In this document: piece by piece, positions 4,347-5,116 of the stretch
Layout: each line of letters starts with the position of its first letter
Position numbering within the stretch: the stretch's first letter is position 1
From: a virus
Lineage: Duplodnaviria; Heunggongvirae; Uroviricota; Caudoviricetes
Strand: one strand, 5' to 3'
Virus record (IMG/VR): IMGVR_UViG_2684622618_000022
Length of the DNA stretch: 5,117 bases
Made by a program: the position numbers and the translations under genes
Notes under the pieces: model-generated
What the model saw: only the letters and a program-made list of their open reading frames with translations
Told to the model about the DNA's origin: nothing
Databases searched by the model: none

Positions 4347-5116
4347 ATGGAAACTGTATTGCATGCACTGAAAGCGATGGGAAAAGCCAATTCTGTTGAA
4401 CTGGCGGCGCGGCTTGATATCAGCCGTGAAGAAGTTCTTAACGAACTGTGGGAACTCAAAAAAATGGCGTTGTTGATAAAACGGGTCACACCTGGTTTCT
4501 GGCTGTCGAAGGTGAAGCCGGGGTAACCGAAGGGCAGGCACTACAACCTGAAGCGCCGGATGTGGTAACCGAAGAGGTCGCTCCAAAAGTTACCGCAGAC
4601 ATGATGGTTGAGTTTATCGGTCAGGATGGTGCTAAAACGTGTGAGGAACTGGCGGGTAAGTTCGGCGTCAGTACTCGCAAGGTTGCTTCCACGCTGGCGG
4701 TGGTAACCGCAACGGGGCGGCTGGCACGCGTTAATCAGAACGGTAAATTTCGTTACTGCATGTCGGGGGGTAATTTACCAGCAGATCCGAAAGCCGCGCC
4801 GGTAACGAAAAATGATGGTAAGGCCTTTCCTCAGCCAGCAGGTGCTGCGTTACCAGTCCGGGAAGCCGCAACACAGGAAGAAATTAAAACAGAAACTGTG
4901 GCGGACATTGTGCAGCCGTTGCCATCGTTTACCGAAACGCAAGCAGATGAGCTGATTTTTCCGTCCCTGCGCAGGGCAAACCTGGCGCTGCGCAGGGCGA
5001 AAAGTGATGTTCAGAAGTGGGAGCGAGTCTGCGCCGCGCTGCGGGAGCTGAACAAGCACCGGGATATTGTTCGACAGATTACTGATTCTTCCCGCCGTGT
5101 TGTATCGGAAAAGTGA
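4347..5116 (+). pseudogene. Winged-helix protein gene (YdaW-like position) split by a 1-nt frameshift in an A7 run; may be pseudogene, sequencing error or slippage site
   Basis: ATG at 4347 (GAGG at 4333-4336) opens a frame encoding [39 protein letters not shown] that stops at 4524-4526. Track ORF 4448..5116 continues in the -1 frame from the same A-run (4458-4464) as [17 protein letters not shown]... Eight A's instead of seven would give one continuous ORF (...[19 protein letters not shown]...) of about 255 aa ending at TGA 5114-5116. Confidence 0.6.

Follow-up and report, generated by a model that had tools for sequence, protein, structure and literature searches.

Genomic context of the locus

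The stretch of DNA analysed here (the window, 5,117 nucleotides of IMG/VR virus record IMGVR_UViG_2684622618_000022) is the immunity and replication region of CP-933P, a cryptic prophage of E. coli O157:H7 and the same element as Sp12 in strain Sakai. Positions 2350–5117 showed 100% identity to strain EDL933 (NZ_CP008957.1), and positions 1–2299 differed from EDL933 by three SNPs and one indel (an extra T at 242) and from strain PV15-279 by four SNPs; because of the differences from EDL933 in this first part, the window is taken to come from some typical O157:H7 strain that is not EDL933 itself. An assembly gap of 50 N (2300–2349) lies within a YdaT-family ORF (2197–2589), and the sequence on both sides of it agrees with EDL933, which has 83 bases in its place (L001 3921–4003).

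The genes are arranged in the order ParE-family toxin and PaaA2-type antitoxin (both on the minus strand), an ORF in the position of the repressor (also minus), a YdaS/Cro-like gene and YdaT-family genes, followed by a helix-turn-helix (HTH) replication initiator resembling lambda O, a DnaC/IstB-like ATPase and a gene split into two reading frames. The succession of DnaC/IstB-like gene and DUF1627 gene was kept in all related loci. The PaaR2-PaaA2-ParE2/YdaS-YdaT switch of CP-933P has been studied experimentally, and the prophage was described as cryptic in that work (PMC8630535), so that gene decay is to be expected there.

The ParE-family toxin (937–1311), the PaaA2-type antitoxin (1217–1462) and the regulator ORF upstream of them all lie within 937–1863 on the minus strand, a segment that represents the three-component PaaR2-PaaA2-ParE2 module, which in CP-933P occupies the place of cI. 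The gene in the repressor (PaaR2) position, for which PGAP places the start at window position 1800, carries a run of eight A's on the minus strand (1789–1796) as codons 2–4 (ATG CAA AAA AAA GAA); this run is intact and is a fragile homopolymer of the same kind as that of the DUF1627 gene described below. Within the O-like initiator ORF (2597–3574), repeats of the form GACCCGT(T/C)AA... with a period of about 15 nt occupy 2959–3036 (clear copies at 2959, 2974 and 3004, degenerate ones at 2989 and 3019; peptide repeats TVDPSN), and two copies of CC(C/T)GATCCGTCAG follow at 3071–3104. Both kinds of repeat resemble origin iterons that lie inside an initiator gene, an arrangement known from lambda O.

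A split gene of the DUF1627/YdaW family

The features of the split gene and its upstream neighbour are listed in Table 1. In the window, the A7 run is read in the zero frame as CTC AAA AAA ATG (...GAA CTC AAA AAA ATG GCG...). The product of the 5' ORF, which starts with the ATG at 4347, therefore begins with native residues (METVLH...WELKK) and continues into out-of-frame residues before the TAA, and a 3' ORF delimited mechanically extends in the -1 frame from a GTG at 4448 to 5116 with a translation of 222 aa. The preliminary description had placed the frameshift correctly, in its coordinates as in its arithmetic: the A7 run splits the gene and a single additional A joins the two parts. The continuous gene restored in this way has 256 codons, and its product is identical to a protein of E. 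coli O157:H7 PV15-279 (WP_000450876.1). Runs of seven A's are not in themselves unusual, the window having four where about 2.5 would be expected. The two parts of the intact protein, residues 1–39 and 40–256, are both reproduced exactly, however, and a known protein that continues so precisely from one side of the run to the other shows that the join is not due to chance.

Table 1. Coordinates of the split gene, its parts and the preceding gene in the window
Feature	Position	Strand	Basis or remark
DnaC/IstB-like ATPase, upstream neighbour (lambda P analogue; ydaV-like)	3581..4321	+	Pfam IstB_IS21, 70.9 bits
Disrupted DUF1627/YdaW-family gene (1-bp deletion, pseudogene) of cryptic prophage CP-933P/Sp12	4347..5116	+	100% identity to EDL933_RS12290
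5' ORF, 59 aa (39 native and 20 out-of-frame codons)	4347..4526	+	TAA at 4524–4526; UniProt Q8X456, 'DNA-binding protein'
Region coding for the predicted N-terminal winged-helix domain, residues 1–52	4347..4501	+	AlphaFold, Foldseek, HTH_11 24.3 bits
A7 homopolymer (ancestral A8: codons K38-K39-N40, AAA AAA AAT)	4458..4464	+	Comparison with PV15-279
-1-frame continuation, native residues 40–256	4463..5116	+	N40 = AAT 4463–4465; stop at 5114–5116
Pfam DUF1627 region, restored residues 91–245 (predicted second helical HTH-like module and long C-terminal helix)	4616..5080	+	PF07789, 331.6 bits

The restored protein matched Pfam DUF1627 (PF07789) far above the gathering cut-off of 28.1 bits, as did the 3' ORF alone (332 bits), and matched phrog_630 over residues 1–252 (E 1.6e-131). 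Homologues carry the names 'DUF1627 domain-containing protein' or 'YdaW family' in RefSeq and phage records, and a protein search returned 2240 sequences at E ≤ 0.001, those listed being nearly all from E. coli and 253–256 aa long. As in its lambdoid prophage relatives, the gene is the immediate successor of the DnaC/IstB-like gene and is itself followed by a DUF977 gene. The full-length architecture of N-terminal HTH and DUF1627 is not present in one frame in the window, where the zero frame ends after 59 codons; the gene is thus a disrupted member of the DUF1627/YdaW family. Our literature search found no functional study of DUF1627.

An AlphaFold model of the restored protein, built on 26 close homologues, was poor for the protein as a whole (mean pLDDT 57, pTM 0.25) and confident for residues 1–52 (pLDDT 82–89), and interpretation was confined to this N-terminal part rather than to a second domain or the arrangement of domains. 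The modelled topology (helices 4–11, 16–23 and 27–39, strand 13–15 and a hairpin of strands 43–46 and 49–52) gives reasonable support to a winged helix of the order H1-S1-H2-H3-S2-S3, with a predicted recognition helix and a β-hairpin wing. In Foldseek comparisons about 50 residues were superposed on the winged helices of IclR, Zalpha, FeoC, ArsR/AntR, Csa3 and MarR proteins with an rmsd of 0.9–2.0 Å, at weak E-values (0.01–0.08), and Pfam HTH_11 scored just under its cut-off of 25 bits (Table 1), other HTH families being weaker; precomputed PF08279 matches are present on many homologues. The winged helix proposed in the preliminary description is reasonably borne out. Beyond the wing, the model has helices at 84–132 (low confidence) and 197–253, and no solved structure was related by sequence at E < 0.03. 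Across 51 distinct intact alleles, pN/pS was 0.22 for residues 1–55 and 0.25 for residues 84–140, compared with about 1.3 for the linker (56–83), and the low values in the two folded parts indicate that the intact gene is under purifying selection there. The frameshift falls directly after H3 (27–39), the predicted recognition helix, and removes the wing together with everything downstream.

Two further observations concern the family. In some ENA gene calls DUF1627 and the DUF977 (PF06163) protein encoded downstream form one fused product (P0034, 403 aa; P0080, 372 aa), which suggests that some alleles have lost the stop codon or shifted frame once more near the 3' end. Actinobacillus phage vB_Apl-pPE4 (PP818812.1, 10084–10806) carries a DUF1627 gene that is 83% identical in DNA to the E. 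coli prophage gene, and its recorded host, Actinobacillus pleuropneumoniae, is unexpected for this module.

Occurrence and annotation of the A7 allele

One-base miscalls of homopolymers are common on some sequencing platforms. The window contains an N-gap, and the preliminary description had considered that the true sequence might be A8 and the shift an error in a draft. The distribution of the allele refutes this explanation, which we regard as extremely improbable. A 771-nt query was found with 100% identity in EDL933, TW14359, EC4115, Xuzhou21, SS17, SS52, FRIK944 and many other strains, and a probe of 87 nt with the run at its centre gave an exact A7 match in 287 complete genomes that come from many laboratories. 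All listed examples with a named serotype were O157:H7, and members of clade 7, clade 8 and lineage I were among those listed. The 59-aa product occurs on at least 1000 contigs and the 222-aa fragment on 553 (AAK16980.1 and others), while in near-identical alleles of sister lineages the run was called correctly as A8. Among the genomes listed, the 3' frame was intact and had no second lesion.

The frameshift of typical O157:H7 is already annotated, and hence known: PGAP/RefSeq labels the EDL933 copy 'DUF1627 domain-containing protein, frameshifted'. The halves of the gene are also held in databases as independent proteins (Q8X456, phrog_16668, P0121, P0131). The 59 positions of phrog_16668 match the truncated ORF from end to end, including its out-of-frame tail, and this phrog appears to have been built from the truncated ORF.

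The A8 state and the direction of change

The A8 version, with no other difference over the 771 nt, was present in six genomes: O55:H7 DEC5B, O55:H7 DEC5E, O157:H7 LSU61, O157:H7 PV15-279, O157:H7 F3113 and JNE132847. In PV15-279, which has the same prophage with identical flanking proteins, the single extra A was the sole difference from the window over 2768 nt. At least 35 further genomes of other serotypes (O103:H2, O45:H2, O121 and others) had A8 and one SNP, and all 34 of the listed non-identical E. coli matches to the 87-nt probe were one base longer. Among these very close relatives, A7 is thus the state of 287 genomes and A8 that of ancestral or basal lineages and of other serotypes.

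Published work puts these strains at the base of the lineage: O55:H7 is the progenitor of O157:H7, LSU-61 has an intermediate position and PV15-279 is a member of the β-glucuronidase-positive lineage; in the stepwise model LSU61 (GUD+) and PV15-279 are both in clade 9.2.36 (PMC6256406, PMC7175801). The pO157 plasmid of F3113 groups with that of PV15-279, apart from those of all other strains (PMC10758439), and the basal placement of F3113 is indirect in that it relies on this grouping; JNE132847 is unplaced. A8 is the ancestral state and A7 is derived. The simplest history is one deletion from A8 to A7 on the branch leading to typical O157:H7, followed by clonal inheritance, and the real pseudogenisation named as one option in the preliminary description is supported by this order of states and by the PGAP flag.

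The presence of A7 and A8 on otherwise identical alleles within serotype O157:H7 would also be expected of a phase-variable contingency locus, at which frequent and reversible switching between the two lengths turned the gene off and on. The states nevertheless track phylogeny, typical O157:H7 having A7, and O55:H7 and the basal or clade-9 strains A8. Nothing pointed to variants with six or nine A's in the class of records with at least 99% identity (330 records, nearly all accounted for by the 287 A7, the six identical A8 and 35 one-SNP A8 records). Runs of 7–8 are, moreover, short for efficient phase variation, and such switching is highly unlikely here.

Homologous loci and evidence on recoding

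A set of 90 loci was examined, drawn from viral contigs of IMG/VR, from genome contigs and from annotated genomes, with the window itself included; a contig scan with a single sequence as query had yielded four loci only, since a query of this kind reaches close relatives only. The product was 256 aa long in 77 loci, 249–253 aa in six, 186 aa in two (K-12-like) and 59 aa in five. The stop after 59 codons was limited to loci with the O157 allele (5 of 90, the window counted), and the layout of two ORFs was found in none of the 85 other loci. The commonest related allele interrupts the run, as AAAAGAAAT (CTC AAA AGA AAT, Lys-Arg-Asn), and other intact alleles interrupt it as AAAGAAAAT or AAAAAGGCT; further readings in homologues were AAA GAA AAT, AAA AGA AAA and CTG AAA AAG GCT, and the run was interrupted in most diverged alleles. 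The comparison of run lengths among homologous prophages that the preliminary description had proposed returned A8 in the sister lineages, and not the universal A7 with a conserved downstream frame that would have spoken for slippage.

The preliminary description had also raised programmed or transcriptional slippage, by which a -1 ribosomal frameshift or an insertion by RNA polymerase would deliberately give a short and a long product. The geometry of the site is suited to it. If the peptidyl-tRNA-Lys on AAA 4461–4463 slipped to AAA 4460–4462, the next codon would be AAT (Asn) and the native ...ELKKNGVVD... would be obtained exactly, and one A inserted by RNA polymerase would restore the same junction. 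The A-rich heptamer A_AAA_AAG is furthermore known to give more than 1% unprogrammed -1 frameshifting in E. coli (PMC10861913). The zero-frame heptamer is, however, C_AAA_AAA and not X_XXY_YYZ, and it permits perfect re-pairing for the slip of a single tRNA only. Stimulatory RNA structure was not detected, as positions 4440–4560 fold no better (-33.7 kcal/mol) than their shuffled versions do on average (-33.05 kcal/mol; z = -0.20). Stimulatory Shine-Dalgarno elements act at a spacing of 10–14 nt, and none was seen at that distance by inspection. In Rfam only sub-threshold chance matches were obtained (speF leader at 4497–4602, 19 bits against 37).

Productive sites of bacterial transcriptional slippage typically have nine, and sometimes eight, A or T (PMC1088944), and the present run of seven falls short of this and is unconserved. 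Since the two-ORF layout is moreover confined to one clonal allele and the other loci have single ORFs, programmed recoding is unsupported and, like phase variation, is not favoured by our data; we consider it very unlikely. A scan of 4200–5117 for promoters and terminators found nothing, and hence offers no evidence that the 3' part is transcribed independently. An internal restart was likewise considered and set aside: the first in-frame ATG past the stop of the 59-aa ORF is at 4601, with no Shine-Dalgarno sequence seen nearby by inspection. A 171-aa ORF is called from this ATG by some annotators nonetheless (EDL933_2516).

Proposed origin of the split gene and its possible residual activity

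The observations are best explained by an inherited loss-of-function deletion of 1 bp in typical O157:H7, rather than by an error or a programmed frameshift, and we would put the probability of this reading at about 0.9. In an ancestor of typical (β-glucuronidase-negative) O157:H7, one A was lost from the A8 run encoding Lys38-Lys39-Asn40 in the DUF1627/YdaW-family gene, which in CP-933P/Sp12 comes after the replication genes of O-like and DnaC-like type. The loss probably occurred by replication slippage on the homopolymer, and the deletion was then passed on clonally. Translation should now give mainly the 59-aa peptide, which has the predicted helices 1–3 of the winged helix without the β-hairpin wing and ends in 20 unrelated residues; what follows in the intact protein, from the linker through the DUF1627 module to the C-terminal helix, is no longer read in frame. 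Judged from the fold model, a peptide that lacks the wing is unlikely to form a normal DNA-binding domain, and we infer that function was lost through the deletion.

The term 'pseudogene' may overstate this loss, as tRNA-Lys slips readily by nature on a run of seven A's and some full-length protein may persist. A mutation that arose by accident could accordingly have left a leaky gene, in which unprogrammed slippage yields a little full-length protein and this protein, the 59-aa fragment or both retain some effect. The slip described above restores the native sequence, the 3' frame is undamaged, and A-rich sites in E. coli are known to allow unprogrammed suppression (PMC10861913); in Salmonella, frameshifted 'pseudo-pseudogenes' are reported to be expressed at a low level (PMC9122581). 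Against this, the stimulatory elements sought were not found. An intact 3' frame is in any case to be expected in so young a lineage, for which reason decay is not independently demonstrable. O157:H7 genomes gave three to six DUF1627 gene matches each, among the matches listed, and with such other copies there is perhaps no selection to keep that of CP-933P. We therefore consider leakage of this kind unlikely, if less so than the alternatives weighed above. The more specific idea that the A7 allele is not dead, with slippage regenerating full-length DUF1627 protein at a low level and the wing-less three-helix fragment perhaps acting alone, is similarly doubtful; if it were true, typical O157:H7 would have a regulator of reduced dosage or altered form in the replication/early-right operon of CP-933P, and not a null.

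Comparison with known systems

Once its frame is restored, the CP-933P gene resembles the DUF1627 (PF07789)/YdaW proteins of phrog_630 in its full-length match and in its position after the DnaC/IstB-like gene, and it differs from the intact members, of 249–256 aa, in being split by the 1-bp deletion. The ydaW gene of the K-12 Rac prophage (b1361) has the orthologous position after ydaV and a conserved winged helix (54% identity overall), whereas it has only 186 codons, diverges from the family past about residue 154 and lies beside the rzpR remnant. The run is interrupted there as AAA AAG GCT (Lys-Lys-Ala), and no homopolymer shift was seen in the RefSeq copy. The preliminary description had cited K-12 ydaW as a pseudogene; the copy is indeed shortened, but RefSeq gives it as a CDS with no pseudogene flag.

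With -1 frameshifting of the dnaX type and the slippage of IS elements and Thermus dnaX, the site shares an A-run read by tRNA-Lys that joins overlapping frames, a shift of -1 leading to the longer product. Unlike those systems, it has no X_XXY_YYZ motif, no stimulatory structure and no conserved two-ORF layout, and its run is below 8–9 nt. In map position the gene recalls lambda ren, which stands after the replication genes, directly following P, and residues 86–137 gave a weak match to phrog_142, 'Ren-like exclusion protein' (E 4.6e-6). Homology to lambda Ren was not significant when tested by hhalign (probability 0.95%, E 0.057) and was rejected, and the proteins differ in length (96 aa for Ren, 256 aa for the restored product).

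Significance for O157:H7 and CP-933P

The finding is an ordinary one, a further case of gene decay in a prophage that is cryptic. Two fragments of the gene are listed in databases as separate 'proteins' (Q8X456; phrog_16668), and the case may serve as a reminder to their users. In the complete genomes examined, the change from A8 to A7 is a clean marker of a single event that parts typical O157:H7 from O55:H7 and from β-glucuronidase-positive or intermediate O157:H7. For studies of immunity and replication in CP-933P, including the PaaR2-YdaS-YdaT switch, it means that EDL933 and Sakai-type strains have a broken DUF1627 gene behind the DnaC-like one, whereas PV15-279 and LSU61 have it intact.
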